Source of the DNA: a virus
Lineage: Duplodnaviria; Caudoviricetes
Virus record (IMG/VR): IMGVR_UViG_3300030108_003878
Coordinates: 1-56,874 of that record
Length of the DNA stretch: 56,874 nt
Strand: one strand, 5' to 3'
Shown in pieces: positions 1 to 55,923 of the stretch (position 1 is its first letter; every line of letters begins with the position of its first letter). Below the pieces are notes generated by a model. That model did no database searches, was not told the DNA's origin, and saw only the letters and a list, made by a program, of their open reading frames with translations. Both the position numbers and the translations under genes were made by a program.

Positions 1-124
1 TAATAAGGACTGTTTAAAACTACTTGAACAAATGGGGAATAAATATGTAGACCATTTAAGGAAAAAACTTAATTCAATAGTTAATGATAAAGATAAACGA
101 TACAGAAATAAAAGAGAGAGCTAA
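1..124 (+). CDS. Partial hypothetical early protein (5' truncated)
   Basis: Open frame from nt 2 (NKDCLKLLEQMGNKYVDHLRKK...) to TAA at 122-124, overlapping the next ORF. Confidence 0.45.
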   Translation, partial: NKDCLKLLEQMGNKYVDHLRKKLNSIVNDKDKRYRNKRES

Positions 125-320
125 TAATAAAATTTGGAGTAAAATTCAAATGGGCCAAATACATTTAGAGGATTTAAGACAACAATTAAAAACCAAATCG
201 TATAGACCTTTTATTGATGAAGAACAACAACGAGGCTTAATAGAGCACCAAAAGCTAGATTTAAAAGTATTAAATTATATTTACAAATTAATTGAACTTG
301 ATAACCATGAAGCTATTTAA
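84..320 (+). CDS. Hypothetical phage protein
   Basis: 78-aa ORF in a tightly overlapping + strand run. Confidence 0.6.
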   Translation: MIKINDTEIKERANNKIWSKIQMGQIHLEDLRQQLKTKSYRPFIDEEQQRGLIEHQKLDLKVLNYIYKLIELDNHEAI

Positions 321-525
321 CTTTAATTTTAAAAGACTTTTACCTAATTCAAAAAAAGAAGCTCATAAAAAATTCTTGATTGATAATATATTTTTATTAC
401 ATAAAGAAATATTAGAAGATGTTTTAAGTTATAATAGAACAGGTATTTTGCCTATTAAAAGTTTAAAACATAAGGCCGGTTTAGTTTATAAATATTCTAG
501 ACGTTTACGGCTAATTAATATGTAA
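292..525 (+). CDS. Hypothetical phage protein (true start may be ATG 307)
   Basis: 77-aa ORF overlapping the upstream gene. Confidence 0.55.
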   Translation: MNLITMKLFNFNFKRLLPNSKKEAHKKFLIDNIFLLHKEILEDVLSYNRTGILPIKSLKHKAGLVYKYSRRLRLINM

Positions 526-573
526 AGCGACGATAGCTTATTAAAATATAATAATAGCACCCTAGTGTCACAC
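525..573. repeat. Imperfect-palindrome site A (putative operator/origin), paired with site B at 55875-55923
   Basis: GCGACGATAG-N29-TGTCACAC; same arms as site B, core inverted; overlaps the GTG start at 565. Confidence 0.75.
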
Positions 574-1185
574 CGTAAAATGCAATATTTAAACCGCAAC
601 CGAATCATTTATAGAAGAGACCCAATAAACGATGAGCCTACTTCTTCATTTGATTGGGGTTCATTTTATAAAAATGGAACTTATGAGTATTATAGCTTAT
701 TTTTTAGTGACGCAAAAATTAATACAATCAAATCATTATTGTGGCATTTATATGTATTATTATATTTGAATCCTAATTTAAACGAAGAAAAATTTAAAGA
801 GTTAGTTAGGCATATTACAAACAAATCAAATAATTTTATTACTTTTACTTTATCTAATGAAAAAATTAATAGTATTATAGAAGATACTTTAAAATTAAAT
901 TTAGACAAGCCACCTAAAAATAAACTTAGAAAAATTATTTTTAATGACTATAGCCTACTAAGTAAGCATGAAAAGCTTAAAATTGTAGGCCAAATGATTG
1001 GGCGGCAAAAATTATCGTTAGATAAAATATATGATGCCATGTTATTAATTAATAGTATGAATAATAAAATTACTATTAAAAGCTTAGCATCTTATTTTAA
1101 CTGCTCAACGCGGACTATTCATAGAAATATAAATAGTGAGTTAAGAGCAGAGATTAAAAAACTAAATGAAAAAATACAATGTTAA
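565..1185 (+). CDS. DNA-binding protein with C-terminal HTH, possible replication initiator
   Basis: C-terminal ITIKSLASYFNCSTRTIHRNI is HTH-like; helical middle region resembles PriCT; start codon lies inside site A. Confidence 0.6.
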   Translation: MSHRKMQYLNRNRIIYRRDPINDEPTSSFDWGSFYKNGTYEYYSLFFSDAKINTIKSLLWHLYVLLYLNPNLNEEKFKELVRHITNKSNNFITFTLSNEKINSIIEDTLKLNLDKPPKNKLRKIIFNDYSLLSKHEKLKIVGQMIGRQKLSLDKIYDAMLLINSMNNKITIKSLASYFNCSTRTIHRNINSELRAEIKKLNEKIQC

Positions 1186-1915
1186 AAACTATATTAGATA
1201 TAAGACAGATTTACGAGACTCAATGCCGAAGCAAAAAGAGTTTGAAGATTATACTCGTGATGAGCTTATTATTAAGTTTTTACCACTTGTAGAAAATATT
1301 GCACATAAATTTTCGACCATGCAACAAGCGTCAGGCGTTTTAGATATTACCGATTTAATTCAAGAAGGAGCAAAAGGTTTAACAATTGCTGTAGATAAAA
1401 TTGAATGGTTAACTATTAGAGTAAGTGAAGACCCTGAAAAAACTTTAAAATCTTTTTTAAGTAAAAGAATTAAAGGAGCAATAAGAAGAGCAATAGACAT
1501 AGCCCGTGGCCATATAAGAATACCAGAGCATAAGTTAAACGAGATGCGACAAAACCCAGAAAATACTAAAATGGTAGAGATGTTTTTTAATAGTATTTTT
1601 TTAAGTATTGATGAACAAATTGAAAATGAAGATAATAATTTTGATACAATACCAGACCAATCAGAACCATATAATATTGAGTTATTAAATTTATACTTGA
1701 AAGGATTATTAAAAAAGCATTTAAATAAAAAAGAATATGAAGTTTTAAGATTATCATATGGTTTAGATTGCAATAAGCATACTGCTAATCAGATTGCTGC
1801 ATTAATGGGTATTGATGGACCGAGTGCTTATGTTCGCATAAGTGAAATAAAAAAGAGTGCTGTAAATAAACTAATAAATAACGTAGACCATTCGCAAGTA
1901 TTAGATTATCTTTAG
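1166..1915 (+). CDS. Phage RNA polymerase sigma-70-family factor
   Basis: Region 2 motifs LIIKFLPLVENIA, DLIQEGAKGL, RIKGAIRRAI, IRIPEH; region 4 LNKKEYEVLRLSYGL...IAALMG...RISEIKKSAVNKL. Confidence 0.9.
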   Translation: MKKYNVKNYIRYKTDLRDSMPKQKEFEDYTRDELIIKFLPLVENIAHKFSTMQQASGVLDITDLIQEGAKGLTIAVDKIEWLTIRVSEDPEKTLKSFLSKRIKGAIRRAIDIARGHIRIPEHKLNEMRQNPENTKMVEMFFNSIFLSIDEQIENEDNNFDTIPDQSEPYNIELLNLYLKGLLKKHLNKKEYEVLRLSYGLDCNKHTANQIAALMGIDGPSAYVRISEIKKSAVNKLINNVDHSQVLDYL

Positions 1916-1920
1916 CTTCG

Positions 1921-1949
1921 CAAAAAAAATACGTTTATAAATAGATACT
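1921..1949 (+). promoter_or_regulatory. Putative phage early/middle promoter (class E)
   Basis: CAAAAAAAATACG-N10-GATACT, same motif and spacing as three copies at 56122-56804; upstream of the recombination/replication operon. Confidence 0.75.
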
Positions 1950-1973
1950 AAATAAAACCTAAAACCCGTAATT

Positions 1974-2438
1974 ATGAAAACAACTATCAACCAAAAATTA
2001 AAAACGATTCAAACTGAATTTAAATCAAAAAAAAATAGATTTAATAAATTTGGTAATTATCATTACCGTTCAGCAGAAGACATACTTGAAGGGCTTAAAC
2101 CTTTTTTAACTAACTTAAATGTAAGTGTTACAATAAACGAAGAATTAATCAGTTCAGAACCTCCCGTAATAAAATCAACCGCAACAATTTGCGATGATGA
2201 AAATAAATCGTTAAGTGCAACCGCTATTGTTGGAATAGATTTAACTTCTAAAGGCCAACAAATGCCTCAACGATATGGTGCAGCGTCATCTTATGCAAAA
2301 AAATATGCTTTAGGTAATTTATTATTAATAGACGATACACAGGACAGTGATGCCATGAATAAACATCCTGAGCCTCCTAAAAAAATAAACCATCAGAAGA
2401 TTAATAATATTGAGATAGACGACCTTATTACACTTTAA
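1974..2438 (+). CDS. ERF-family single-strand annealing recombinase
   Basis: FNKFGNYHYRSAEDILE and QRYGAASSYAKKYAL...DDTQDSD motifs. Confidence 0.85.
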   Translation: MKTTINQKLKTIQTEFKSKKNRFNKFGNYHYRSAEDILEGLKPFLTNLNVSVTINEELISSEPPVIKSTATICDDENKSLSATAIVGIDLTSKGQQMPQRYGAASSYAKKYALGNLLLIDDTQDSDAMNKHPEPPKKINHQKINNIEIDDLITL

Positions 2439-3172
2439 TGAACTCAAAAGAAATAATAGAAAAGCTTCAAGACGACAAACATTACTACGGTAAATTTGGC
2501 CGTCAATTTTTAAGTAACTCTGATATAAATACTTTAATTAAAGGTAAGCCTGAGGATTTATATAAACCAAAGAAAAAAACTTCAGATATGCTTATTGGTG
2601 GATATTTTCATACTATTATATTAGAGCCTGAAAAAGTAAAATCTTTTAAAATTATAGAAAGTTCAACACGCAATACAAATAAATATAAAGAAATATCAGG
2701 CGGTGAAATGTGTTTATTACAACACGAAGCTGACAAAGCAAATTTATTAACAGAAAAAATATTAAAAAATAAATATTGTGAGTCTATGATATTTGGTAGT
2801 GCTAAACAACATGAGGTCCCCGGTGTTAAATCAATTGAAGGAAACTTATGGAAAGGTAAAGCAGATATTATAAACCACGATGACCATTTTATAGTTGATT
2901 TAAAAACGACGCAAGACGTTGAAAATTTTAGATACAGCGCAAATAAATTTAATTATGATAGTCAAGCTTATTTATATCAACAAATATTTGGTTATGAAAT
3001 GATATTTATTGTAATAGATAAAAATACACAAAGAATAAAAGTATTTGATTGCTCAGATACTTTTTTACAACGGGGATATGATAAAGTTATGAGAGCAACA
3101 GAAGTGTTTAATTTATTTCATAAGACTTTAGACTTTGACCCAAATCAATATTTTATAAACGATACACTTTAA
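2438..3172 (+). CDS. PD-(D/E)XK exonuclease (RecE/exonuclease VIII-like)
   Basis: LSNSDI, GGYFHTIILEP, KGKADII...VDLKTT, YDSQAYLY; adjacent to ERF. Confidence 0.8.
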   Translation: MNSKEIIEKLQDDKHYYGKFGRQFLSNSDINTLIKGKPEDLYKPKKKTSDMLIGGYFHTIILEPEKVKSFKIIESSTRNTNKYKEISGGEMCLLQHEADKANLLTEKILKNKYCESMIFGSAKQHEVPGVKSIEGNLWKGKADIINHDDHFIVDLKTTQDVENFRYSANKFNYDSQAYLYQQIFGYEMIFIVIDKNTQRIKVFDCSDTFLQRGYDKVMRATEVFNLFHKTLDFDPNQYFINDTL

Positions 3173-3188
3173 TTTAAATTTAATCATT

Positions 3189-3497
3189 ATGGCAAGCATA
3201 ATAAATGGAAGCATTGACTTAACAAAAATACCTAAAGAAAAAATTATTATAGGTAAAAAAGGTAAGTACTTACCTATTTCAATTACTATTAACGACGAAC
3301 AAGACCAATTTGACCAAGATGGTCCTATAGTCGTACAACAGTCTAAAGAGGAAAGAGAAAGCAAAGAAGCTAAAACTTTTTTAGGAAATGTAAATGTTGT
3401 TTGGAGTAATGGACAAAATGTAGAAGCAAAGATAAAAACAAACGGTGCACAACCTCAAATAAAAGCTGAAGAGCCCGAAGACGATTTACCATTTTAA
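3189..3497 (+). CDS. Putative single-stranded DNA-binding protein
   Basis: Small beta-rich protein ending in acidic EDDLPF tail, between exonuclease and primase-helicase. Confidence 0.7.
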   Translation: MASIINGSIDLTKIPKEKIIIGKKGKYLPISITINDEQDQFDQDGPIVVQQSKEERESKEAKTFLGNVNVVWSNGQNVEAKIKTNGAQPQIKAEEPEDDLPF

Positions 3498-3501
3498 ATA
3501 A

Positions 3502-5217
3502 ATGAAAATTAATACTCAAGAGATTAATGGTTTTGAAATAGAAACTTTTAATCAATATAAACTTGAAGAAGGAAAAGCGCAGGGGATATGCCCTCTGTGC
3601 TCACACGAAAGAAAAGGTGCTAAGCAAAAACTTAAATGTGCTTCTTATGATTGGGAGCGCGGCTTAGGCACTTGTCATAATTGTAACAGCACTTTTCAAT
3701 TACATACATATATGCGTAAAGGTAAAGTTGAAAAAGAATATATCCGACCAAAAGCTGTTATTCATAATAAAATAAAAAGCACTAGGATTGAACAATGGTT
3801 TCAATCAAGAGGTATATCTATTAAAACGATAAATGATTTTAAAATATCGGAAGACATAGAATATATGCCTCAAATAGATAAGAAAACTAATATTATAAAA
3901 TTTAATTATTATATAGGTAATGAATTAATAAACATTAAATATAGAGATGCAAGAAAAAATTTTAAACTCTATAAAGGAGCCGAAAAAATATTTTATAATA
4001 TTAATAGTATTGTTGGTTATAATGAGTGTGCTATTGTGGAGGGTGAGATGGATGCTTTATCTTTACACGAAGCTGGTTATCCTAACGTAGTATCTGTTCC
4101 CAATGGTGCTACTATTAATAATAACAATTTAGATTACTTAGATAATTGTATAGATTACTTTGAAGACAAAGAAAAAATAATATTAGCCACTGATAAAGAT
4201 GAAGCTGGTATAACTTTACAGCAAGAATTAATTAGAAGATTAGGGGCAGAAAAATGTTATATAGTTGATTTTGAAGATTGTAAAGACGCTAACGAATATT
4301 TATTAACACATGGAAAAGAAAACCTTATCAGGCGAATTACAGAGGCAAAACCCGTGCCTTTGGAAAACGTTACTACTTTTAAAGATGTTGAGGACGAAAT
4401 TAAAGACTTTGTACAAAACGGTTTTAAGCCCGGTTATCAAGTTGGGCTCGCGAATTTTGACCAAATTTTTTCAACTTATACCGGTCAGTTTATTACTGTT
4501 ACTGGCATACCTTCTTCTGGTAAGTCTGATTTTGTGGATCAGATGGTCATCGGTTACAACTTAAAATACAATTGGAAAATTGCTTTTGCTTCACCAGAAA
4601 ACCAACCAACATATTTACATGCTCACAAGCTTATGCGAAAAGTATGGCAGGATATGCCAACTTTATCTCATGCAATTAAATGGCAGCAAGTTAGTCAACA
4701 TATTAATGATAATTTTTATTTTATTGATATGGAAAGATATACGCTTGAATCTGTGCTAAAAAAGGGAGCCGAACTAGTAAAGCGAAAAGGAATTAAATGT
4801 TTAGTTATAGATCCTTATAATAAAATAAGAGATGTAAATTCTAATTCAGATGATGTAAACCGTTATACAATGGAATACCTAACTAAAATAGAAATATTTG
4901 CAAAAAAATATGATGTTTTAGTTATCATAGTAGCACACCCTACAAAAATGTATCGAGATAAAGATGGTAATATAGAAGAGCCAACAATGTATAATATTAA
5001 AGGTGGCGGTGAATGGTATGATGCAAGTTATCACGGCTTATTAGTTCATAGAAATTATGAAGAAAAAACAGTTAAAGTAAAAGTATTAAAAGTTAAATTT
5101 CAAAATTTAGGTGAAAACGGAGCGGAAGCGTATTTTACTTGGAAACCAAAGTCAGGATGTTTTATTCCGCATTATATAGAATCTAATAACGAACCAATGC
5201 CATGGGAAGCGGACTAA
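3502..5217 (+). CDS. DNA primase-helicase (T7 gp4/Twinkle-like)
   Basis: Zn finger CPLC...CHNC; TOPRIM VEGEMDALS, DKDEAG, KDANE; Walker A GIPSSGKS; VIDPYN. Confidence 0.93.
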   Translation: MKINTQEINGFEIETFNQYKLEEGKAQGICPLCSHERKGAKQKLKCASYDWERGLGTCHNCNSTFQLHTYMRKGKVEKEYIRPKAVIHNKIKSTRIEQWFQSRGISIKTINDFKISEDIEYMPQIDKKTNIIKFNYYIGNELINIKYRDARKNFKLYKGAEKIFYNINSIVGYNECAIVEGEMDALSLHEAGYPNVVSVPNGATINNNNLDYLDNCIDYFEDKEKIILATDKDEAGITLQQELIRRLGAEKCYIVDFEDCKDANEYLLTHGKENLIRRITEAKPVPLENVTTFKDVEDEIKDFVQNGFKPGYQVGLANFDQIFSTYTGQFITVTGIPSSGKSDFVDQMVIGYNLKYNWKIAFASPENQPTYLHAHKLMRKVWQDMPTLSHAIKWQQVSQHINDNFYFIDMERYTLESVLKKGAELVKRKGIKCLVIDPYNKIRDVNSNSDDVNRYTMEYLTKIEIFAKKYDVLVIIVAHPTKMYRDKDGNIEEPTMYNIKGGGEWYDASYHGLLVHRNYEEKTVKVKVLKVKFQNLGENGAEAYFTWKPKSGCFIPHYIESNNEPMPWEAD

Positions 5218-5489
5218 CTAGTAGAAAAAAAAGGCTTAATTATACTATGCCTAGTTATAATTTAAGCGCAGACGAAATTAAATGGAGAAACTTTTGTATT
5301 AAAAAAAATATTAGAATATCACCAAAAGGTATATATAAAGACCCTGATAATTGGTATATTCAAATAAATTTTGGCCCTTATAAAAAAGGAGAGATACCTC
5401 ACGTATCACCAAATTCATTTGATCGTAAAAATATATGGCCTGAATATTTTAAAATATGTAAACATTATTATGATAAATATACAAAATGA
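5202..5489 (+). CDS. Hypothetical phage protein
   Basis: 95-aa ORF bridging helicase and TS-like gene with short overlaps. Confidence 0.65.
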   Translation: MGSGLTSRKKRLNYTMPSYNLSADEIKWRNFCIKKNIRISPKGIYKDPDNWYIQINFGPYKKGEIPHVSPNSFDRKNIWPEYFKICKHYYDKYTK

Positions 5490-6291
5490 ATATCGCGGTT
5501 TACTAGCCGGTATATTTTACGGAGGATCTAAAAAAGAAGATCGAACAGGGATAGGTACTAAAGCTGTTTACGGAAGAATGATCAGACACGATATGGCTTT
5601 AGGCTTTCCATTATTAACAACAAAAAAAATATTTTTCAATCATGCAACTACGGAATTATTATGGATACTACAAGGTCGTTCTGATCTTGATTATTTGCAC
5701 ACTAACGGTGTTACTTATTGGGACGCTAATTACAAATCCTCAAATAGAAATGATAACACGCTTGGGCCTATTTACGGGCATCAGCTTCGCAACTTTAATG
5801 GGATTGATCAACTTAAAAATGTACTCATCAACATTAAAGAAAACCCGAGCTCGCGGCGCATTATGGCAAGCTTTTGGAATCCCAATGACTTGGGTAATAT
5901 GGTCCTTCCTCCTTGTCATTATAGCTTTCAAATATATATAAATGATGATAAGCTTGATTTATTATGGACTCAGCGATCAGTGGATGTTTTCCTGGGTCTT
6001 CCTTATGATATTGCAATGTATGGGCTATTATTACTTATGTTTGCGAAAGGTAGTGGATATAAGCCCGGTACGCTTATCGCTTCCTTGGGTGATTGCCATA
6101 TTTATAATAATCATGCAAGTCAGGTTCAACAGCAATTACTTCGTAATTTTAGGAAATTACCTAATGTTAGTGTTGATATTGGACTTACTTATGATAAAAA
6201 ATTAAAAAAAGTAATTATACCTACACATAATATGGTTAATATTGTAAATTATGACCCTCACCCATATATTAAAGCACCTATAAACGCATAA
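5470..6291 (+). CDS. thyA: Thymidylate synthase-family enzyme, with Asp at the pyrimidine-specificity position (possible dCMP methylase/hydroxymethylase)
   Basis: DRTGIGT, FPLLTTKK, ELLW, LPPCH, QRSVDVFLGLPYDIAMY, GDCHIYNNH; start moved to in-frame ATG 5470. Confidence 0.9.
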   Translation: MINIQNEYRGLLAGIFYGGSKKEDRTGIGTKAVYGRMIRHDMALGFPLLTTKKIFFNHATTELLWILQGRSDLDYLHTNGVTYWDANYKSSNRNDNTLGPIYGHQLRNFNGIDQLKNVLINIKENPSSRRIMASFWNPNDLGNMVLPPCHYSFQIYINDDKLDLLWTQRSVDVFLGLPYDIAMYGLLLLMFAKGSGYKPGTLIASLGDCHIYNNHASQVQQQLLRNFRKLPNVSVDIGLTYDKKLKKVIIPTHNMVNIVNYDPHPYIKAPINA

Positions 6292-6293
6292 GT

Positions 6294-7049
6294 ATGTATT
6301 ATCTTTATCATATACCCGGTAAAAAAATAGGTGTAACACGTAATTTAAATAATAGAGTTACGCTAATGCAGGGCTATAAGTCTAATGAATATGAAGTTCT
6401 TGCTTCTTCTGATGATATTAATTTTATATCGTCGAAGGAAATAGAGCTTCAAAAGTCTTATGGCTATAAAGTTGATAGACAAAGCTATACTAGTTTAAAT
6501 AAATTAAATACAATGAAAATAAACATTACGGAACAAACCACAACTTTTCCAGTGCCCCGCACGCAGCTAGCGGATTGGCTTATTGAAAATAAAGAGTTAA
6601 CATGGGAAACAGACCATGGGGAATTTAATATTACTGAAGAATCATCCAGAGCCTGGGTATTAGCTAATGCTAAAAAATCTATGTATAACGACCAGCGCAC
6701 TTTTATTTATAACAAAGCATACGCTGAGAATGTTTTAAACAATCCCCAGGTTGAAATAGATTTTAATACTATTAGAGAGTGGGCAGATAAAAGAGGCATT
6801 GTAAAGGAAGGTAATGTTAATACACAATATATTAAGCTAATGGAAGAAGCTGGAGAGCTAGCCCAAGCTTTATTAAAAGATAACAAAGAAGAGATAAAAG
6901 ATGCCATAGGTGATATGGTTGTTGTACTTACTAATTTATCTTCTTTGTCAAAATTAAAAATTGAAGACTGCATTAACCATGCATATGACCAAATAGCTGA
7001 ACGAACGGGAGAAATGATAAATGGAACTTTTGTAAAAGATACGCTATGA
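6294..7049 (+). CDS. Fusion: GIY-YIG-like N-terminus, unknown middle domain, C-terminal MazG-like NTP pyrophosphohydrolase
   Basis: YYLYHIPGKKIGVTRNLNNR; C-terminal KLMEEAGELA...IKDAIGDMVVVL; in-frame internal ATG at 6513 with A-rich leader. Confidence 0.75.
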   Translation: MYYLYHIPGKKIGVTRNLNNRVTLMQGYKSNEYEVLASSDDINFISSKEIELQKSYGYKVDRQSYTSLNKLNTMKINITEQTTTFPVPRTQLADWLIENKELTWETDHGEFNITEESSRAWVLANAKKSMYNDQRTFIYNKAYAENVLNNPQVEIDFNTIREWADKRGIVKEGNVNTQYIKLMEEAGELAQALLKDNKEEIKDAIGDMVVVLTNLSSLSKLKIEDCINHAYDQIAERTGEMINGTFVKDTL

Positions 7050-7273
7050 GAGACTTAATTATTAAAAATGTTATTGAAAAAATTAAAAAACGTTCCGACG
7101 TTGGCTTTAAAAAATATGGCGTTACTTTAAAAGATGACGATCAACCACTCGACGTTTGGCTACAACATATTCAAGAAGAATTAATGGACGCAGTTAATTA
7201 TATTGAAAAAGCACGTTACGCACTTCGTGAAGAAATAGAAGAGTGTTATATTAATGATGCGAAAGAAGATTAG
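7046..7273 (+). CDS. Small all-alpha NTP-pyrophosphatase-like protein
   Basis: RSDVGFKKYGVTL...WLQHIQEELMDAVNY (EExxD motif). Confidence 0.6.
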   Translation: MRDLIIKNVIEKIKKRSDVGFKKYGVTLKDDDQPLDVWLQHIQEELMDAVNYIEKARYALREEIEECYINDAKED

Positions 7274-7703
7274 AAAACGTGGCCCAGTACAGGCTAAAAA
7301 AATAATTTATGATGGAATTAAATTTGCATCTGGATTAGAAAAATATATGTACATAGCTTTAAAAAAAGCTAAAATTAGATTTAAATACGAAGGAGAAACA
7401 TTTGTTTTATTAAATGGTTTTCATTTTGATAATCAAGTGTTTGAAAGACAGTCTAATAGTAAAGGAGAATATATAAATAGAGGTGAAAAAAGAATTCTAC
7501 CTATTAAGTACACTCCAGATTTTATTGGTAATAATTTTATAATTGAAACAAAAGGCAGACCAAATGAATCCTTTCCTATTAGATGGAAGTTATTTAAAAA
7601 ATTAGTTGTAGAACAATTTCCTAATTATACTTTGTATAAACCTCAAAATCAAAAAGAATGCGACAAAACTATAGATCTGATCCTAGGCATGCAAAAAAAA
7701 TAG
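7254..7703 (+). CDS. Holliday junction resolvase, T7 endonuclease I-like
   Basis: FASGLE...FKYE...YTPDF...IIETKG. Confidence 0.8.
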   Translation: MMRKKIRKRGPVQAKKIIYDGIKFASGLEKYMYIALKKAKIRFKYEGETFVLLNGFHFDNQVFERQSNSKGEYINRGEKRILPIKYTPDFIGNNFIIETKGRPNESFPIRWKLFKKLVVEQFPNYTLYKPQNQKECDKTIDLILGMQKK

Positions 7704-7831
7704 CGCGTATAAAATATGCAGAAAGACAGATTGAAAAGTATATTAAATGGACAATTGAAAATAGAGGAAAATTAATATATAGTGAATTAGAGGAATTACA
7801 TAATAAATATAATATTAATTGTTATGGCTAG
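7658..7831 (+). CDS. Small hypothetical protein (57 aa, not in ORF track)
   Basis: MRQNYRSDPRHAKKIARIKYAERQIEKYIKW...CYG*; fills the operon gap. Confidence 0.55.
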   Translation: MRQNYRSDPRHAKKIARIKYAERQIEKYIKWTIENRGKLIYSELEELHNKYNINCYG

Positions 7832-7961
7832 ATTAATTGTAAATAATAAATTTATAAAACCAAAAAAAAGAAGACCAGGAATTCATGCAAAATCAAAAAC
7901 ATCAAAAATTAAAACGAGCAAAAATTATGTCAAAAAATACAACCGACAAGGAAGAAGGTAA
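7824..7961 (+). CDS. Small basic protein (45 aa, not in ORF track)
   Basis: MARLIVNNKFIKPKKRRPGIHAKSKTSKIKTSKNYVKKYNRQGRR*; overlaps both neighbours. Confidence 0.6.
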   Translation: MARLIVNNKFIKPKKRRPGIHAKSKTSKIKTSKNYVKKYNRQGRR

Positions 7962-8091
7962 GGGCTGGGAGCTAACTCTCGGCTTTTATCCAGGAATATT
8001 ATTAGGGATAAGAAGTTATTTTAATAAAAATTATAACGAGCACGTTATATATGTTCCCTTTATAGATATTTGTTTAACTATTGATAAATAA
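7927..8091 (+). CDS. Small hypothetical protein
   Basis: MSKNTTDKEEGKGWELTLGFYPGILLGIRSY...; start moved to ATG 7927. Confidence 0.55.
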   Translation: MSKNTTDKEEGKGWELTLGFYPGILLGIRSYFNKNYNEHVIYVPFIDICLTIDK

Positions 8092-8095
8092 AAAT

Positions 8096-9064
8096 ATGGG
8101 ATTATTCGATGAAAGAATTCCTTATAAACCGTTTGAATATCCGGAATATTATACCGAGGGGTGGCTTAAGCAAGCCCAGGCTTTTTGGCTTCATACGGAA
8201 ATACCGATGTCAGGTGATGTTAAGGACTGGAAAGAAAGGCTCACCGACGGGGAAAGGCATCTCGTTGGAAATATACTTTTGGGATTTGCGCAAACAGAAT
8301 GTGCGGTATCTGATTATTGGACGCAAAAAGTGGTTAACTGGTTTCCAAAGCATGAAATACAGCAAATGGCAATGATGTTTGGATCGCAAGAAACTATTCA
8401 TGCGGTTGCTTACAGCTATTTAAATGAAACATTAGGCTTAGAAAATTTTGAAGGATTTTTACACGAACCAGCAACAGCCGCTAGGTTTGATAATTTAGTA
8501 AGTTATAATGGCAAAGAAGCAAAAGGTATTGGACGCTCGCTTGCAATATTTAGTGCATTTGCCGAAGGAGTTTCGTTATATTCTGCATTTGCTGTTTTAT
8601 ATAGCTTTCAATTACGAAATTTATTAAAAGGTATAGGTCAACAAATGAAATGGAGTGTAAGAGATGAATCGTTGCATTCTAAAATGGGATGTCAGTTATT
8701 TAGACATATGTGTAAAGAAATACCAAATTTACAAAACGATTGTTATGATGATGTTATTAAAGCGGCCAAAACAATGCTTAGTGCCGAGGAAAATTATATC
8801 GATAAAATGTTTGAAAAAGGAGACATCGAAAACCTTAAAGCTTACGACCTCAAACAATTTATCAGGAAACGTCTTAATGAAAAAATTACAGAACTCGGTT
8901 ACAGCAACGGACGGGAGTACTTTGAATTTGACGAAGTCGGAGCAAGTAATCTTGACTGGTTCTATCATCTTACCGGGGGGCATACTCATACTGATTTTTT
9001 TGCTATTCGGCCAACGGATTATTCGAAGGCTAATGAAGGTGAAGACTTTGATGACATATGGTAA
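8096..9064 (+). CDS. nrdB: Class I ribonucleotide reductase beta subunit
   Basis: Ferritin-like ligands QETIHAVAYS, FAEGVSLYSAF, RDESLH; C-terminal HTDFFAIRPTDYSK. Confidence 0.95.
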   Translation: MGLFDERIPYKPFEYPEYYTEGWLKQAQAFWLHTEIPMSGDVKDWKERLTDGERHLVGNILLGFAQTECAVSDYWTQKVVNWFPKHEIQQMAMMFGSQETIHAVAYSYLNETLGLENFEGFLHEPATAARFDNLVSYNGKEAKGIGRSLAIFSAFAEGVSLYSAFAVLYSFQLRNLLKGIGQQMKWSVRDESLHSKMGCQLFRHMCKEIPNLQNDCYDDVIKAAKTMLSAEENYIDKMFEKGDIENLKAYDLKQFIRKRLNEKITELGYSNGREYFEFDEVGASNLDWFYHLTGGHTHTDFFAIRPTDYSKANEGEDFDDIW

Positions 9065-9212
9065 AAAAAATATAATTAAATGTAGTCAATGCGATGAAGA
9101 GTTCCCTGGAGGATTTGAATATAGAGAACATTGGGAAAAAGAACATTTTTATCCTTACTTAAAAAAAGATTCTTTTGATTATGAAAAAGCAAAGGCAGAT
9201 GGCCATAAATAA
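9051..9212 (+). CDS. Small protein with classical C2H2 zinc finger
   Basis: CSQCDEEFPGGFEYREHWEKEH = C-x2-C-x3-F-x8-H-x4-H; ATG 9051 overlaps the end of nrdB. Confidence 0.6.
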   Translation: MTYGKKNIIKCSQCDEEFPGGFEYREHWEKEHFYPYLKKDSFDYEKAKADGHK

Positions 9213-9366
9213 AGTTTGGAGAATTTGGGCAAAAGCTTTAGGAGAAAAAGCTGAAGAAAATGCGGATAAAGTTGCTTTTGTAAGAACGTTATTAATTGCA
9301 CAAGCAATTATAACAAACATTTTAATTTCTATTAATATTATTTTAAATTGGTTATATGTGGAATAA
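9199..9366 (+). CDS. Small membrane protein
   Basis: MAINKVWRIWAKALGEKA plus hydrophobic C-terminal helix. Confidence 0.6.
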   Translation: MAINKVWRIWAKALGEKAEENADKVAFVRTLLIAQAIITNILISINIILNWLYVE

Positions 9367-11104
9367 CGATTGGATAAAAGGAAAAGACTATCCTGCTTGG
9401 GGTGATACAGAAGTATATAAAAAAACAATTGCTGGAGGGTATTTAGTTTATGATGAAACACCTCGTGATGCTTATATGCGAGTTGCTAAAACAGTAGCTA
9501 GAAGATTATATAAACCAGAACTAGCAGATAAATTTTTTCAATATATATGGGATGGGTGGTTATGTTTAGCTTCTCCTGTTTTATCTAATACAGGCACAGA
9601 TAGGGGTTTACCTATAAGTTGCTTTGGAATTGATGTTGCAGATAGCGTACATGACATAGGTAAAAAAAATTTAGAAATGATGATACTTGCAAAACACGGC
9701 GGGGGTGTAGGTATAGGCATCAATATGATTAGACCTGCCGGAGCTAAAATTACAGGTAATGGAACTTCAGACGGCGTTGTCCCTTTTTGCAAAATATATG
9801 ATTCAACTATCCTCGCGACCAACCAAGGTTCGGTTAGACGAGGAGCTGCAAGCGTTAATATCAATATTGAACACAATGATTTCCTCGAATGGCTTGAAAT
9901 TAGAGAACCAAAAGGTGACGTTAACCGCCAGTCTCTTAACCTGCACCAGTGTGCTGTCGTTGGTGATAAATTTATGCGAAAATTACAAGCAGGAAATCCA
10001 GACGCAAGAACAAAATGGTCTAAGCTTATCCAAAAACGTAAAGCAACTGGAGAACCTTATATCTTATTCAAAGGAAATACAAACAAAAATAATCCAGAAG
10101 CATATAAAAAAAATAGTTTAAAGGTACATATGACCAACATATGTAGTGAAATAGTATTACATACAGATGAATCACATAGCTTCGTGTGTTGCTTATCATC
10201 TGTTAATTTAGATAAATATAATGAATGGAAGAATACGAATTTAATTTACGACGCGACATGGTTCCTAGACGGTGTGCTAGAAGAATTTATTCAAAAGGCA
10301 AAGAATATGAAGGGATTCGAGAACTCTGTACGGAGTGCAGAGAAAGGTCGCGCACTTGGACTGGGTGTCCTTGGGTGGCACAGTCTATTACAAAAAAGCG
10401 GTATAGCTTTCGAGAGTTTATTAGCTCAATACAAAACGCGAGAAATTTTTTCAAAGCTAAAATTAGAAACTGAAAGAGCTTCAAGAGCATTAGCTGAAAC
10501 ATATGGAGAACCATTATGGTGCGTAGGGACAGGTATGCGTAATACTCATTTACGCGCTATTGCACCTACAGTTTCAAATAGTAAATTAGCGGGTAATGTA
10601 TCGCCTGGAATTGAACCTTGGGCCGCTAACGTTTTTACAGATCAATCTGCTAAAGGTACGTTTATTAGAAAAAATAAAGAACTAAAAAAGTTATTAAGAA
10701 AAGCAGGGATAGATACAAAAGAAACATGGGATAAAATACTTGCAGACGGCGGTTCTATTCAAGATATTAAAGAACTCGACGAATGGTATTATGATAATTT
10801 AGGAAGGCTAACTAATGAAGAAGAAAATAATGAATCAGCTAAAAATGTATTTAAAACATTTAAAGAAATAAATCAGTTAGAATTAGTGAGGCAAGCCGGT
10901 ATAAGGCAAGATTATATTGATCAAGCCGTAAGCTTGAACCTAGCTTTCCCCTCAGTGGCTACACCGAGATGGATTAATAATGTACATATTGAAGCGTGGA
11001 AAAGAGGTATAAAAACTTTATATTATACCCGAACCGAATCCGTATTAAGAGGAGATATAGCTGCAAAAGCAATGGATCCTGATTGTATAAGTTGTGATGG
11101 TTAA
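9356..11104 (+). CDS. nrdA: Class I ribonucleotide reductase alpha subunit (no ATP cone)
   Basis: LASPVLSN, ISCF, GGGVG, RRGA, TNICSEI, VCCLSS, APTVSNS, KTLYY, C-terminal CISC. Confidence 0.95.
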   Translation: MWNNDWIKGKDYPAWGDTEVYKKTIAGGYLVYDETPRDAYMRVAKTVARRLYKPELADKFFQYIWDGWLCLASPVLSNTGTDRGLPISCFGIDVADSVHDIGKKNLEMMILAKHGGGVGIGINMIRPAGAKITGNGTSDGVVPFCKIYDSTILATNQGSVRRGAASVNINIEHNDFLEWLEIREPKGDVNRQSLNLHQCAVVGDKFMRKLQAGNPDARTKWSKLIQKRKATGEPYILFKGNTNKNNPEAYKKNSLKVHMTNICSEIVLHTDESHSFVCCLSSVNLDKYNEWKNTNLIYDATWFLDGVLEEFIQKAKNMKGFENSVRSAEKGRALGLGVLGWHSLLQKSGIAFESLLAQYKTREIFSKLKLETERASRALAETYGEPLWCVGTGMRNTHLRAIAPTVSNSKLAGNVSPGIEPWAANVFTDQSAKGTFIRKNKELKKLLRKAGIDTKETWDKILADGGSIQDIKELDEWYYDNLGRLTNEEENNESAKNVFKTFKEINQLELVRQAGIRQDYIDQAVSLNLAFPSVATPRWINNVHIEAWKRGIKTLYYTRTESVLRGDIAAKAMDPDCISCDG

Positions 11105-13519: not shown

Positions 13520-16500
13520 TTAAAATCCTCCACTAGGTTCAAAGCCTCCTGAGGTATCAAACCCGCCGCTTGCATCAAATCCGCCTTCTTCTATTGGTTG
13601 TTTAGTTTTTTTATCAATCCCTAATTCCCAATCTGACCAGCCAAAAAGTAATGCTGCTCTTTCCCATGCGGCTAGATCAGCCTGAGTCATGCTAACAAGG
13701 TTATCTGTTTTTTTTACTACCCTATCTAATGGAATATTTGTAAAAGCTGAAATAACATTTGCAGGTGGTAAGTATAGTTCGTCGTTAAATTTAAATCCAT
13801 CTTTACCAAATGCTTTTTTAGCATATTTAGATTGATCTCCAGCCTTAACTAATTTTTTTACTTTACTTTGCACTGGAGGTGAAATACCTAAAATTTCTAA
13901 TCCAAGTGCTTTACCATACTCTTGCTTATATTCAGCTTTGTCAGATTCATCAATTAATTTTAATATTACATTTTTACCTGTAGCCACTGCAGCACCTGCA
14001 AAACCTAATCCTCTTAAAAAACCATCGGTCATACCATTAGCTATACGCAAATATTTTTCCTCTTTCTTTTTATCGTCTTCATCTTCATCATCAAAAGCAA
14101 AAGCAAATAAAGCACTTTGCAAAGCGGTAAATACTAAGTTTTGTACAACAGTATAATAAATAGCTTTAGATATATTTTCTCGGCGACTACCACGGTTGTT
14201 TATAGCATCCGAGAGAGCTTTTTTAGTTAATCTAGCATACTGAGCCGGTGTATTAGCAAAAGCTAATATAAAGCGTCCTAATGAGCCCGCTTGCTGAGCA
14301 CTAATTCTATCAGGCCTACTCGATTGTTGTGCTTCTTCAGCAACTTCTCTAAAATCTAAAAATGCTTTTTCTTGGGCTTCTTTTTCAGATAAACCTTCTT
14401 TTTTATATTTGTTTAATCTATTTCTATAAAATGTAGCACCTCCCGATGCAATTGCAAAGCTATCAGCTGTTTGTGTAGGCAAAAATCCTGCCTGTAATAT
14501 TTTACTTATTACTCCTCTAGCTCCGCCTTGTTTTGCCATATCTGCTATATCTGACTCACTAACATTAAATCTTAAACCGCCACGTCTTTCTTTTAAGAAA
14601 TCAGAATTAAATAAAAACTTAAAGTCAGACCAGTATTGTTTTTGATTACCAAAAGCTTTAGCCGCTTTAAATATATTATTATCAGAGTAATTAATAAAGT
14701 TTATACTAGATATAGTTTGTAGTAAAGCCGATCGCATATTAAAAAACATAATTGCTCCAACTGAATTATTAATCCAATCTGTAAATCTACCAACAAGAGC
14801 ATCTTTATTATAACCACGATTCCTTCCAGTTTTCATTCGGGTTAAAATATTTTCTAATGCTTTTCTATACCCAGTACCATATGCAGCTTGTAACTTATTT
14901 AAATTTTCTTCAGAAAATATTATATCTACATTTTCTTGCCATTGTTGTAATGCTTCTGCACGGCGAGTTGTATTTATACTATTTATTAAATCTGTAGTAA
15001 TAGTGCCTGCTTCCCAACCTGCATCAGGTTCTGGGTAACCTTTACCTTTATTTATATCAATTAAATTATCCGCAAATACAACTAACTCATTATTATTAGC
15101 TACATAAGATATTAATTCGCGTATATCAGCATTATCTAGCCCTGGAATTTCCATCCCTTGCTTATTCCATATATAAGCGCGTACGGCTTGTTCTACTGTA
15201 AAATCGTCTCCAGGTATTTTTTTACGTAAATTTTTAGGTATAATTTTTAAATCTTCTTTTAATGTTTTATAATCCTCAAACAATGCTACCCTAGCTGAAG
15301 ATATTTCACTCATAGCTCTAGCGTACGGATCTAACAAATTTTCTTTATACCAAGCCATTTGTTGTTCACCGAGCTTTCCTTTACCTAAAGTATTATATAA
15401 TAATCCAACAAAGTCTTCTGCCGACGGCGGTATAAAAAATTTAAACCTGCCTTTGTTAGCTCCGATAGTTTGTGCTCTTGAATCGCTGTATTTTTTTTCT
15501 TTAGCAATACCAGTTTTGTTTTCTATTATTTTATTAAAGTCTTGGCTAAGCTTTTCACTATCAAAAAATTCTTTACGTCTTTGATTTATTTCTTCATCAA
15601 TTAATTTCATGTTATCCAAAACTAGCTGATTGTCCGTGCCCTTTGGTAAACGTTTAGATTTGGGTAATTTATTATTATTTTTAGCGGATGCTTTCCTTAC
15701 TGACGATCTTATAAGAACTTGACCCTCTGAAGTAGATCCATCGGGGTTTATACCTAATTGTTCTCCTAGTGTAATAAAGTTTTTACCTTCCGTTCCTACA
15801 AAAATTATATCGTTAGGATTAATACCATTATCTATAGCAGCTACTTTCGGATTAAAATATCTTTGCCACCAAAATTTCCAAGAATCTTCAAATTTATCTT
15901 TATACCCTGCTTTAGCTACTTTTTTATCATTTACTTTACCTAATGCTAATACAAAATAATTATCAGTTACATTTTTAAATTCTTTATTAAAATTCTTTTT
16001 ACCTAAAATAGCTTCTATTAATTTACGGTAAGCTATAGCCTGCTGCATAGCATGCTCGTAAGAAAATTGTTTTGCATTGTCTTGAAAACCAATTACAGGA
16101 GCACCTAAAGACATAAAGCTAGTTCTTTCGTTTTGAGAAAAAGATAATAAAGTTAAAATTGGTCCCGCTAAATTTTTATCTTTATCTATTAATGATTTAA
16201 TTTTAAGCCAAGTATCATCAAATACTTTTTTATGTTTTTTATTAAATTCATCAATTTTTTCTATATTATTTTCAAATTCTGCTGGAGTACTGCCAAACCT
16301 TTGACCTGGCCGAGATGCGCCTACTGTTAATCTATCAGGTAATATACCTTCATCTTTTAATTTTTCTAATTCTCCTTTTATATTTTTATCTTTATTACCT
16401 ACTAAATATTCAAAAACTTCTTCAGAAACCATTTTTCTATTAGGAGACACGCGCGATAAATTTAATAATTTAAATTCTTTAGTATTAAATATTTTAACTA

Positions 16501-30946: not shown

Positions 30947-31702
30947 TTATGATTTTTTATTTATTTCGTCCATTTGAACTTGCTGAGCAGCCGCTTGAAC
31001 AATTTGTGGGTCTTTAATAATTATACCTGAATACATTAATATTCTTAATATTACTTCACTTTGTTCACTTATATCTAATTCAAAATCTTGAGATCCTGTA
31101 TTTGTTGCGCCATTAAATTCTGCTGAATTATATACATATTGACCTAATGATCCAACAGTAAATCCCCATACTACATCAACTGGTTTGCGAACATATTCTA
31201 CTTGAATATCGCTTTGTATAGTAGTAGGCCTAACAAATAAATAATTATTCTCAAATAAATATGTGGGAAAAGTTTTTGTAGCTTTTGTTAATTTAGACTT
31301 TTCAGAAGTATAAAAGTCATTTCGTTGAAGTCTTTGAACAAGTACTTCATTTTTATATGTTACTTCACCAATTCGGTATAAAGTAACTGATTTACCATAT
31401 CCATCGGTATTGGGTAAAGTAAAATACTTATCGGTAGTTACTGCACTACTATTATATACTGCATTACCAAAAGTTTTAAATACAGCTATTTTTTCGTCAA
31501 TATTTTCTACCCTATCAGCATAATTCATGTCAGTTTGCGGAACACGAATTTGTTGATTTAAATCTTCAAAATATTTTTCAAAGATTTCTAATTGAACCTG
31601 TGTTGCAACATTATTGAATTCATCAGGGGTCATATATCCCCTTTGCTCTTTGTTTAATATTGTCAACACTGTTTGATATACAGTGTTTACGTTTATAGCC
31701 AT
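30947..31702 (-). CDS. Tail tubular/head-tail ring protein
   Basis: NKEQRGYMTPDEFN, YVRKP; structural operon position. Confidence 0.65.
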   Translation of the reverse strand: MAINVNTVYQTVLTILNKEQRGYMTPDEFNNVATQVQLEIFEKYFEDLNQQIRVPQTDMNYADRVENIDEKIAVFKTFGNAVYNSSAVTTDKYFTLPNTDGYGKSVTLYRIGEVTYKNEVLVQRLQRNDFYTSEKSKLTKATKTFPTYLFENNYLFVRPTTIQSDIQVEYVRKPVDVVWGFTVGSLGQYVYNSAEFNGATNTGSQDFELDISEQSEVILRILMYSGIIIKDPQIVQAAAQQVQMDEINKKS

Positions 31703-31720
31703 ATTGATTTTTTATAATAC

Positions 31721-31762
31721 AATAGCAGGCCGAATTAACGGCCTAGCTATTATATATATTAC
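31721..31762 (-). promoter_or_regulatory. Late-promoter-like element followed by a GC-rich hairpin
   Basis: Minus strand GTGTAATATATA then stem ATAGCTAGGCCG-TTAATT-CGGCCTGCTAT before the 31702 start. Confidence 0.5.
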
Positions 31763-31765
31763 ACA

Positions 31766-32590
31766 TTATCCTAATTTTTTTTGTATAGTTTTGTATAAAT
31801 CAACACCTTCATCAGTTTTAAAATATGCGGCCATAGCTGAATAAGGATTTTCATCAAAAGGTACGTTCATTATTTTACGTCCTGTTTTCCCAATACTAAA
31901 AGATCTTTGGTCTTGAGAAAGTTTTATAATTCCTAGCTCTTCAGCATTTATTGCAACATTTCTTAATTGTACATTTTCATCGTTTGCTAATTCTAAAAAC
32001 AATACGGGATTATCTTTAGCATATCTTAAAACATCTCTTCTAATTTCTTTAGAACTCATTTTAGTTACCTCTGAGCCTAAATCAACTCTTAATATAGCTT
32101 CAGCTAAATCAATTTCAATTTCTTTAGCTGCATTTAATGCTTCTATAATTAATTCCATTTCTGATAAATCATCCCCGGCAGACACTACTGGGTCAAACTC
32201 TTTATATTTTGTATTTTTTAAAGGATGATATAATGAAAGTAATTTTTGTAAATTTTGTTGTTGTTTAGGAACAAATAATACGCCATTTCTAAATATAATA
32301 TGCCCTAAAGTAGCTTCTCCTTTTTGTTCATCTACAAAAGGAGACGACTGATTAGTTGCATATCTTAATTCTCTTTGTTGATTTGTTGTTTCATCAAACC
32401 ATAATAATGGATATTTATATGTATGTCTTGATGATATAGTATAAGTTATTGGAGAATGTTCACCTAATAATAAATAGGTTCTATCTTTAATTTCCCAATT
32501 ATTTTTTTTAACTATTGTTTTTGCTACAGGTTGTGAGTCAGGTTTTTTAACTGACTTTACTGCAGGCTTATTTTTTGCTGTTTTTTCCAT
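31766..32590 (-). CDS. Conserved phage protein downstream of major capsid gene
   Basis: 274 aa; RELRYATNQSSPFVDEQ. Confidence 0.7.
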   Translation of the reverse strand: MEKTAKNKPAVKSVKKPDSQPVAKTIVKKNNWEIKDRTYLLLGEHSPITYTISSRHTYKYPLLWFDETTNQQRELRYATNQSSPFVDEQKGEATLGHIIFRNGVLFVPKQQQNLQKLLSLYHPLKNTKYKEFDPVVSAGDDLSEMELIIEALNAAKEIEIDLAEAILRVDLGSEVTKMSSKEIRRDVLRYAKDNPVLFLELANDENVQLRNVAINAEELGIIKLSQDQRSFSIGKTGRKIMNVPFDENPYSAMAAYFKTDEGVDLYKTIQKKLG

Positions 32591-32612
32591 GATAAAATAA
32601 AATTAAATAAAT

Positions 32613-32654
32613 AAAAAAGACAACAGAGGGCAGCGTGCACCACCCTCTTTGCCT
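32613..32654 (-). terminator. Intrinsic terminator after major capsid gene
   Basis: Minus strand AGGCAAAGAGGGTGG-TGCA-CGCTGCCCTCTGTTGTC-TTTTTT. Confidence 0.8.
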
Positions 32655-32664
32655 TAATAAAAAA

Positions 32665-42809: not shown

Positions 42810-43112
42810 TTAAGCTACGTCTATTGCTGTAATTTCTACAGTTGAATCTAAACCAACTGTTGCTACAACTCCGCCTGGATTAGCAGTAAGTGCACTGTTA
42901 ATTCCGTTTGCAATGTCTACACCTTTAGCTGTATTTGTAAAAGTTACATATGAACTTGCATCTTGAAAAAAGATAGTTGCTGCATCTGAACTAATTGCGC
43001 TGTTTGTACCTTTTTTTACTAATGCAATTTGATCCGCCCCTATAATCATATCAGCTGTATAGTTTAAGCTGGATGCGAAGTTCTCTTTTTTAATTTTGAT
43101 AAATTTTGCCAT
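42810..43112 (-). CDS. Hypothetical, probably structural protein
   Basis: 100 aa; ALTANPGG. Confidence 0.65.
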   Translation of the reverse strand: MAKFIKIKKENFASSLNYTADMIIGADQIALVKKGTNSAISSDAATIFFQDASSYVTFTNTAKGVDIANGINSALTANPGGVVATVGLDSTVEITAIDVA

Positions 43113-43121
43113 GATTGTTTT

Positions 43122-43153
43122 TGTTTATGTTTATGTTTATGTTTATGTTTATG
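43122..43153. repeat. Hexanucleotide tandem repeat (TGTTTA)x5
   Basis: Direct reading; lies in the 5' leader of the 43112 gene. Confidence 0.9.
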
Positions 43154-43184
43154 GTTAGATTTATACAGTTCTATTCTGTTTTAT

Positions 43185-55556: not shown

Positions 55557-55570
55557 GGTTATATTTATTA

Positions 55571-55801
55571 TTATCTATTTAATGCTCGTTGTTTTACTTT
55601 TTCTTTTGTACTTTTAGGATGAGGTAGGCCCCGATGCATCTTTGTTGGAGCCCCCGTGCCGTACTCAGCTTTCATAGTGGCAACATTGTTGGCTAATATT
55701 TCTTTTGTCTTTTCGTAATCTCCACCGGTATCAGCCATTACTTTTGAAAATGTATTACCTCTTACAGGGGAAAACATAGGCATTCCTTTAATTGCTTTCA
55801 T
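55571..55801 (-). CDS. Small hypothetical protein, first late gene
   Basis: 76 aa directly after a class L promoter. Confidence 0.6.
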   Translation of the reverse strand: MKAIKGMPMFSPVRGNTFSKVMADTGGDYEKTKEILANNVATMKAEYGTGAPTKMHRGLPHPKSTKEKVKQRALNR

Positions 55802-55830
55802 ATTGTTGTTTTTAAAGTATTTGTACTCAT

Positions 55831-55863
55831 TATAAAATTACTCACTTCACAAGTATTTTACAA
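55831..55863 (-). promoter_or_regulatory. Putative late promoter (class L) heading the late arm
   Basis: Minus strand TTGTAAA-N15-GTAATTTTATA. Confidence 0.65.
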
Positions 55864-55874
55864 TTTTTACTAAA

Positions 55875-55923
55875 GTGCGACGATAGGGTGCTATTATATT
55901 TATTTAATAACCTTTTGTCACAC
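55875..55923. repeat. Imperfect-palindrome site B, paired with site A at 525-573
   Basis: GCGACGATAG-N29-TGTCACAC; reverse complement matches site A at 36/49 positions by hand alignment. Confidence 0.75.

Follow-up and report, generated by a model that had tools for sequence, protein, structure and literature searches.

In phage lambda, the operators OL and OR, each with three tandem 17-bp sites, are associated with the divergent promoters PL and PR, and the cI mRNA that starts from PRM is leaderless. Late promoters that depend on a phage sigma factor are known from SPO1 (gp34, together with gp33), T4 (gp55, together with gp33), and phiEco32 (gp36). Among replication origins, oriL and oriR of SPP1 combine direct repeats with a longer A/T-rich region and have a binder encoded beside the helicase loader, and lambda ori is a further parallel for an initiator-bound origin in or next to the initiator's own gene. 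The recombination sites loxP, FRT, and hix consist of inverted arms around an asymmetric spacer that defines their orientation. In phi29, the sites of the p4 protein are pseudo-inverted repeats (CTTTTT-15 bp-AAAATG) whose halves differ in their contribution to affinity, and, depending on position, p4 activates the late promoter A3 and represses the early promoters A2b and A2c (PMC3100819).

Here, we describe a paired element that shares features with several of these systems and differs from each of them. It was found in a window of 56,874 nt, which is the whole of IMG/VR record IMGVR_UViG_3300030108_003878, a caudoviricete sequence that is classed as linear and 94 per cent complete and has a G+C content of 32 per cent.

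The genome in the window

In the ORF map, plus-strand genes extend from 84 to 11104, and the structural genes form an array on the minus strand, from 55801 to 11101. The plus-strand set comprises small early ORFs and the genes of a 206-aa HTH protein, a sigma factor, ERF, a PDDEXK nuclease, a primase-helicase, ThyA, MazG, and ribonucleotide reductase, and the minus-strand array encodes terminase, portal, GroEL/GroES, holin, and giant virion proteins. No DNA polymerase was found among the scanned ORFs of the window; a primase-helicase, ERF, and an exonuclease are present. The nearest homolog of the terminase belongs to a record of an uncultured podovirus (63 per cent), and Flavobacterium Elemovirus and Cellulophaga phages are at ~45 per cent; such relatives suggest that the hosts are marine Flavobacteriia. 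Phages that carry the element are 45–69 kb in size, and the abundant uncultured group that they represent consists of marine podovirus-like phages. The contig of the window is broken inside the early block, of which only 951 and 526 nt are present, and a 95 per cent identical relative (G001) is broken inside the same early block.

Several features elsewhere in the window are recorded here in their own right. Genes for GroEL (Cpn60, E = 1.5e-54; 45419–46972, minus strand) and GroES (Cpn10; 45175–45435, minus strand) are located within the structural array. A 2412-aa ORF (13520–20758, minus strand) is without a Pfam or PHROG match, and a 511-aa ORF (23652–25187, minus strand) contains the C-terminal domain of the crAss-virus muzzle protein (PF25729, E = 6e-14), a sequence match that hints at a crAss-like virion architecture. 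DxDGD, the signature of the crAss-type virion RNA polymerase, is absent from the 2412-aa ORF and from a 1497-aa ORF, although this is a simple pattern and either ORF could still be a polymerase. A tandem hexamer, (CATAAA)x5, occupies 43113–43184 (minus strand) in the intergenic space upstream of the ORF at 42810–43112. G+C-rich hairpins with T runs at 31703–31765 and 32591–32664 (minus strand) flank a 274-aa ORF (31766–32590), the second of these gaps being directly downstream of a 487-aa virion structural gene. The two hairpins look like internal terminators in a long late operon, which would require read-through or antitermination. Finally, a G+C-rich island at 56347–56496 (plus strand) is an open 49-aa ORF (MRIHKITDWEIKPS...) with no obvious RNA gene, and its depth in public contigs is several-fold higher, which suggests that the sequence is common to co-occurring phages.

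Two inverted copies of one element

The element is present in two copies, to which we refer as P (site A) and D (site B):

Site A (P), 527..573 (527–571 as defined by the family), plus strand: GCGACGATAG, a 25-nt A/T-rich asymmetric core, and CTAGTGTCAC(AC).
Right arm of site A: the GTG start codon (565) and codons 2–3 of the HTH gene.
Site B (D), 55877..55923 (55877–55921 as defined by the family), minus strand: outer arms on the plus strand as in site A, core inverted.

An earlier note on this DNA, made from the sequence alone, had claimed that both sites follow one pattern on the plus strand, and we recovered GCGACGATAG-N29-TGTCACAC exactly at 527–573 and 55877–55923. These are the two matches in the window, and none of 100 dinucleotide-preserving shuffles contained even one. 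The claimed inverted 14-mer, TAGGGTGCTATTAT, is likewise exact, at 55884–55897 on the plus strand and 551–564 on the minus strand. Taken alone, the 14-mer is weak, as 21 of 100 shuffles give at least two loose matches when two mismatches are allowed. A repeat finder, however, reports a 45-nt inverted repeat (78 per cent complementary; 529–573 versus 55875–55919), so that the inverted similarity spans the whole site and reaches beyond 14 nt. The arms also proved to be imperfect inverted repeats of each other, as had been described (G.GAC..TAG ... CTA..GTC.C), and site A does cover the GTG at 565. What the window contains is therefore one element in two inverted copies, with the peculiarity that the outermost arm bases agree on the same strand.

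The earlier note had named an assembly artefact as an outcome that would speak against the pairing, and no such artefact appeared, because contigs from four of four public runs (X1–X4) span site B unbroken. These contigs were compared over 54900–56874, where they are short and fragmented, with many loose ends in the early region; they show site B to be contiguous and are uninformative on termini or rare inversions. In run X2, a C>T difference at 55878 converts the left arm of site B to the family consensus GTGAC, and G001 has the same base.

The element as a family trait

Across 183 unique sites, the family consensus is GTGACAWTAG-N24-26-CTAWTGTCAC, and an inner TTA and an inner TAA are also conserved. 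The element is situated on the HTH start codon in seven of seven aligned upstream regions (the window and six relatives), and in the relatives, the right arm reads CTA-ATG-TCA-C, which specifies Met-Ser-His. In a motif scan of IMG/VR (GTGACANTAG-N20-30-CTANTGTCAC, with position 7 left free), at least 126 stretches matched; the element is 44–46 nt long in 135 of 140 matches, although lengths of 40–50 nt were allowed.

The linkage to the HTH gene holds in both directions. A protein-profile scan found at least 479 IMG/VR viral stretches that encode a relative of the HTH protein. That the motif should recur near homologous genes had been proposed as a check, and at 80 of 80 loci identified by the protein alone, the element lies over the start codon (a pattern matched fifty-six of them, and the other twenty-four, in which GTCAT or GTCCT closes the right arm, were recognized by eye). 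Conversely, 36 of the 45 motif-bearing records have the HTH gene, which is never missing from the subset with a completeness of 90 per cent or more (27 of 27). The motif is absent from MW202828.1 and from an Elemovirus, the two nearest deposited phages by terminase that were checked, and no HTH homolog was found in 50,697 deposited phage records. Among the papers listed by our searches of open-access full text, none describes such an element, and the three arm 10-mers occur, among the matches listed, in unrelated uses in other fields.

Copy number and position are equally regular. Six whole genomes contain only two or three full sites each, all at borders of the early block: copy P is always on the HTH start, and the D copy or copies are at the far border. 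Where the region is contiguous, D is located 5.9–10.5 kb upstream of P in the relatives, with small genes co-oriented with the HTH gene in between. The conjecture that the two sites bracket the early region, which the earlier note had made conditional on a circular or permuted genome, is supported by relatives in which P and D flank that block on one contiguous stretch. The counts given throughout are not independent events, since the sites are related by descent.

In two relatives (G023 and G027), the inner D site is directly followed by a conserved G+C-rich stretch (beginning ...GGGCATAGGTCTGCTATACACAT...), which may be a non-coding RNA or a structured leader and has no counterpart in the window:

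G+C-rich stretch of ~150 nt, G023:C1 ~55500–55665 and G027:C1 ~31470–31629, minus strand: downstream of the inner D site.

Core orientation and arm asymmetry

The core of the element is asymmetric in that a conserved block, AGTAA-nn-GG, adjoins one arm. With this block as the guide, all 23 genomes that can be scored for P have it directed into the HTH gene, and all 20 that can be scored for D have its core in the opposite direction. The score fails on the window's own clade, in which the block is AATAGCACC; there, orientation was taken from the direct comparison of site A with site B. The inner parts of P and D match better with D inverted in 24 of 25 genomes (identity of 0.63 versus 0.40). 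In addition, the cores of P and D resemble each other more when both come from one genome than when they come from different genomes (0.63 versus 0.55, a difference that none of 2,000 permutations reached), which fits one lineage-specific reader for both sites.

The arms behave differently from the core. At arm position 7, P and D have the same base pair on the same strand in 14 of 25 genomes, one arm agrees in nine more, and the exact complement is found in none of the 25; in the remaining two genomes (G021 and G005), D is close to a plain inverted copy of P. The arrangement that had been noticed in the window as direct arms with an inverted core is therefore a reproducible and conserved trait of the family in these 25 genomes, with G021 and G005 as exceptions.

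Within a site, the two halves are never alike. Position 7 is non-Watson–Crick in 102 of the 104 unique sites from the motif scan, none of which has perfectly palindromic 10-bp arms. Among the 183 unique sites obtained with a looser pattern, no site has identical half-sites, and none has the same triplet at positions 6–8 in both arms, where 52.6 such sites would be expected. Exactly one half is of the canonical GTGACATTAG (ATT) type in 160 of these sites, neither half is in twenty-three, and both are in none. In P, the canonical half is the downstream one, and its complement holds the ATG; in most D sites, the canonical half is upstream relative to the core. The deviant half takes the forms AAT, ACT, GAT, AAC, GTT, AAA, and ATA and never ATT, and this variety without a single ATT suggests that a second canonical half is selected against.

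The HTH protein and the sigma factor

Copy P overlaps the first of two adjoining genes:

HTH protein (206 aa), 565..1185, plus strand: candidate binder of the sites; Pfam HTH_11 at 26.5 bits (cut-off of 25).
Sigma factor (249 aa), 1166..1915, plus strand: first 20 nt shared with the end of the HTH gene.

The structure model of the HTH protein (pLDDT of 88.8) is mostly helical, with an N-terminal domain (residues ~1–147) and a C-terminal three-helix HTH (~148–206). VIA-align gave Z-scores of 5–6 to TetR-type HTH domains over residues 148–206 only. A Foldseek search against the PDB returned no match at E ≤ 0.001, and a sequence-profile search of the PDB yielded only SlmA, over the HTH, at E = 0.07. 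ECF sigma factors surfaced as weak Foldseek rows (E = 0.6–0.9, TM ~0.16) that we do not trust, and the only transposase-like match, on the HTH region, reached 17.9 bits against a cut-off of 150. The description of the protein as 'Rep-like' was not upheld, as domain and structure searches recognized a generic C-terminal HTH only. The N-terminal domain delimited by the model matched nothing and is, on that footing, putatively new. Of the 8,000 clusters at 90 per cent identity that were scored, 7,990 match the HTH family, and the only name given to its members among the 120 rows listed is 'hypothetical protein'.

The second ORF is assigned to the sigma-70 family by PHROG 351 (E = 4.4e-21) and TIGR02937 (48.8 bits against a cut-off of 42.9), its Pfam r2 and r4 matches being below cut-off. 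The HTH gene is followed by a sigma-like ORF of 249–255 aa with an MK[KN]YN start, usually overlapping it, in 12 of 15 distinct cases.

Promoter-like features and neighbouring genes

On the late side, site B contains a promoter-like sequence and is followed by the first gene of the structural array:

Sigma-70-type promoter-like match in site B, 55893..55921, minus strand: GTGACA, 17 nt, and TATAAT (11/12).
First ORF of the late array (76 aa), 55571..55801, minus strand: ATG 76 nt downstream of site B.

Read on the minus strand, site B points toward the late (structural) operon. Its promoter-like sequence is the best in 55400–56874 and is a match to consensus only, in a region with 15 matches where 10.2 are expected; the family consensus of D is GTGACA-N17-TATAGT. 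Site A, with GCGACG as its left arm, has no −35/−10 match of at least 9/12 on the plus strand, and promoter-like matches are not enriched in the A/T-rich region around it (13 found versus 14.5 expected). P sites often have poor −35 or −10 hexamers.

Relatives have small ORFs at the same place as the 76-aa ORF of the window, and of 62 D-class loci, 46 have an ORF of 50 aa or more whose start is 14–119 nt downstream in the direction of the core. In two relatives (G007 and G015), D is directed at convergent genes of the early type and at a terminator, with the late operon ~1.8 kb further along behind a different promoter-like motif. D is therefore not always a late promoter, and its constant feature is that it marks the border of the main early block.

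In many relatives, a small basic ORF of 75–95 aa follows D at a fixed distance of 38 nt (or 59–77 nt); such loci include L015, L017, L039, L050, L062, L076, and L078. Between D and this ORF is a second motif, ACTTTTAA-N14-16-(A)TGTAA(T/G)(A/T)AT, which may be the real late promoter. A strict genome-wide pattern (ACTTTTAA-N14-16-TGTAA(G/T)(A/T)AT) does not find the second motif at the D sites of six genomes, which indicates that it is clade-specific.

The early genes of the window have a promoter-like repeat of their own:

Early-type promoter-like repeat (53 nt), 1916–1968, 56117–56169, 56569–56621, and 56771–56823, plus strand: TTGCAAAAAAAATACG ... TTGATAATATAAT.

Its four copies precede small early ORFs and ERF and do not share the motif of sites A and B; in relatives such as G007, each early gene is preceded by a long repeat that is comparable in kind but different. 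The 53-nt repeat could be either a host-type (Bacteroidetes −33/−7) or a phage-specific early promoter.

An operator model and its alternatives

Among the roles that the earlier note had offered for the sites, that of operator is the best reading of the sequence, as the element is paired, conserved, and tied to the HTH gene. We favour, by a little more than an even chance, a model in which the sites are obligately asymmetric operators of the HTH protein that overlap outward promoters and control both the HTH-sigma cassette and late transcription. The model is suggested by three observations, namely a sequence-conserved pseudo-palindrome, its position on the HTH start codon, and its co-occurrence with the HTH gene; from these, we infer binding, promoter activity, and the direction of regulation. 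Each site would be a pseudo-palindromic operator of ~45 bp in which a short A/T-rich centre separates two half-sites of 17 bp each (GTGACAWTAGnnnnTTA), and the likely binder of both sites is the 206-aa HTH protein. Through P, the protein would control the HTH-sigma cassette by autoregulation, and if transcription starts inside site A, the HTH mRNA would be leaderless or nearly so. Through D, it would control transcription from the other border of the early block toward the late structural operon. Transcripts would be expected to begin ~7 nt beyond the −10-like block, near 558–565 at site A and, on the minus strand, near 55884–55890 at site B. The promoter part of the sites may be read by the phage sigma factor, which is a natural candidate because the motif of the sites differs from the 53-nt early repeats.

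The asymmetry has a place in this model. Each site would need one canonical (GTGACATTAG type) half and one deviant half, and since P and D have these halves in opposite order with respect to the core, the arms look 'direct' and the core 'inverted'. We propose that at P, the strong half would lie over the start region, where the bound HTH protein would repress, and that at D, it would lie over the −35 region, where the protein would activate. Such opposite outputs could produce an early-to-late toggle like that of phi29 p4. Several observations count against the operator model: site A lacks a good −35 element on the plus strand, promoter-like matches are not enriched around either site, D is directed at convergent genes in G007 and G015 and nears a plain inverted copy of P in G021 and G005, and in nine genomes only one arm agrees between P and D. 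In addition, the arm centres are ~39 bp apart, a long reach for a plain HTH dimer, which would have to be extended or act on bent DNA.

The promoter-like core of D invites a simpler interpretation, in which the sites are pure promoters for the phage sigma factor and the HTH protein is uninvolved, with one arm as the −35 element (GTGACA), AGTAA as the −10 element and discriminator, and the second arm as the initially transcribed sequence. The sigma-70-family gene in the same cassette, the GTGACA-17-TATAAT match of site B (11/12) and the D consensus GTGACA-N17-TATAGT, and the restriction to two or three sites per genome, which are directed toward the HTH-sigma cassette and toward the late side, agree with it. 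Nevertheless, it does not explain why the downstream arm is as strongly conserved as the upstream arm or why identical arms are banned, and it sits poorly with the poor hexamers of many P sites and with the D sites of G007 and G015, which would fire into convergent genes; we consider it unlikely. Replication origins, with the HTH protein as an initiator that binds in or beside its own gene, are also rather unlikely. Inverted-repeat arms around an A/T-rich centre and the overlap of one site with the binder's gene would suit an origin, as would a need for host-dependent initiation in a phage that has a primase-helicase, ERF, and an exonuclease and in which no DNA polymerase was found. The minimum of the cumulative GC skew near 54–56 kb would also suit one, but the skew merely follows the coding strand and switches where the coding strand switches, so that origin and coding-strand bias are inseparable by skew in the window. 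The A/T-rich centre is, moreover, only ~8–10 bp, the HTH gene is coupled to a sigma gene and not to a helicase gene, and an origin has no need of an asymmetric core that points along the neighbouring genes. A third interpretation separates the polarity of the arms from the promoter-like core and regards the sites as polar boundary elements, or gates, that fence the early block and are read by a one-way process (read-through early transcription, a replication fork, or DNA entry). It draws on the same-strand polarity of the arms, which holds for both arms in 14 and for one or both in 23 of the 25 genomes, exact complementarity being found in none, and on the universal property of D, which is the border of the early block and not adjacency to late genes. 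If true, it would amount to a hitherto undescribed type of boundary element in phage genomes. However, the window has no co-directional genes upstream of D that would need a block, G021 and G005 break the polarity rule, and no known protein for such a role was recognized among the 57 ORFs, and we judge this interpretation to be unlikely.

Two further interpretations treat the inverted arms as the functional feature. Recombination sites of the lox, FRT, or hix type that invert the early block would account for the inverted arms, the asymmetric core, and the inversion of the core between copies. The HTH protein model is mostly helical and has no significant recombinase match, and, in accordance with the statement that no recombinase was visible, integrase, resolvase, and transposase domains are present in none of the 57 scanned ORFs. 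The early genes are co-oriented with the HTH gene in the window and in the four relatives mapped. The 'flip/flop' label is not supported, as the arm-exchanged form that inversion should leave, with two identical arms, is found in 0 of 183 sites, and the search for both core orientations revealed no inversion joint at site B in contigs of four of four runs, which is a statement about abundant variants because contigs drop rare ones. We regard inversion as extremely improbable. A single-strand hairpin or cruciform signal, be it an N4-type promoter, an ssi or primosome site, or an RNA hairpin masking the start codon, would make sense of a quasi-palindrome in which the central mismatch, at position 7 of the arms, is conserved, and site B, as single-stranded DNA, does fold modestly better than shuffles (z = −2.1 and −3.2). 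For site A, on the other hand, folding gives no advantage over shuffles (z = −0.7 and −0.2), and the minimum-energy structure leaves its arms unpaired; furthermore, hairpins of P and D on one strand would carry complementary, and hence different, loops. The proposed hairpin also finds no support in covariation, as Watson–Crick pairing at the variable mirror positions falls below the level of shuffles (position 7, 0.09 versus 0.22; position 11, 0.41 versus 0.54; position 14, 0.17 versus 0.28; position 18, 0.05 versus 0.33), so that the element behaves as duplex DNA and not as a stem. With no Rfam match in the window either, a hairpin function is very unlikely.

With the operator model as the preferred reading, the element is probably a phage operator–promoter pair with an unusual and strictly kept asymmetry. 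Together, the site, the HTH gene, and the sigma gene would probably form the master switch of these abundant, uncultured marine phages. Halves that are never alike, in an order reversed between P and D, amount to a testable design principle that could explain opposite outputs of one protein. The element also provides a sequence signature for early/late borders in hundreds of uncultured phage genomes.

Comparison with known systems

The arm-and-spacer design of the element is that of loxP, FRT, and hix, whereas no recombinase, flipped state, or arm exchange was found here in the window ORFs, public contigs, and unique sites surveyed. As in SPP1, two distant copies of the element exist, one of them in the gene of the presumptive binder; in SPP1, they are initiator elements, and here the binder is encoded beside a sigma factor. 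The pairing of a sigma gene with a small partner gene and the existence of few dedicated late promoters are reminiscent of SPO1, T4, and phiEco32, although the late promoters of those phages are not palindromic, unlike the sites described here.

The likeness to lambda lies in two outward-firing operator–promoters that bracket a regulatory region, in pseudo-palindromic operators that combine consensus and non-consensus halves, and in a regulator mRNA that would start at its AUG. In lambda, the regulator gene is located between the operators; here, it is outside, and each site is a single 45-bp unit. Also unlike lambda, the phage described here appears to be lytic and carries its own sigma factor.

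With phi29, the comparison concerns regulatory logic only and implies no membership in that system. In phi29, p4 is not an HTH protein, its sites are shorter, the host sigma factor is used, and p6 is needed. Here, the sites are 5.9–10.5 kb apart, at opposite borders of the early block, one of them is on the start codon of the regulator, and the order of the halves is inverted between the copies. What the two systems have in common is pseudo-inverted sites with unequal halves.
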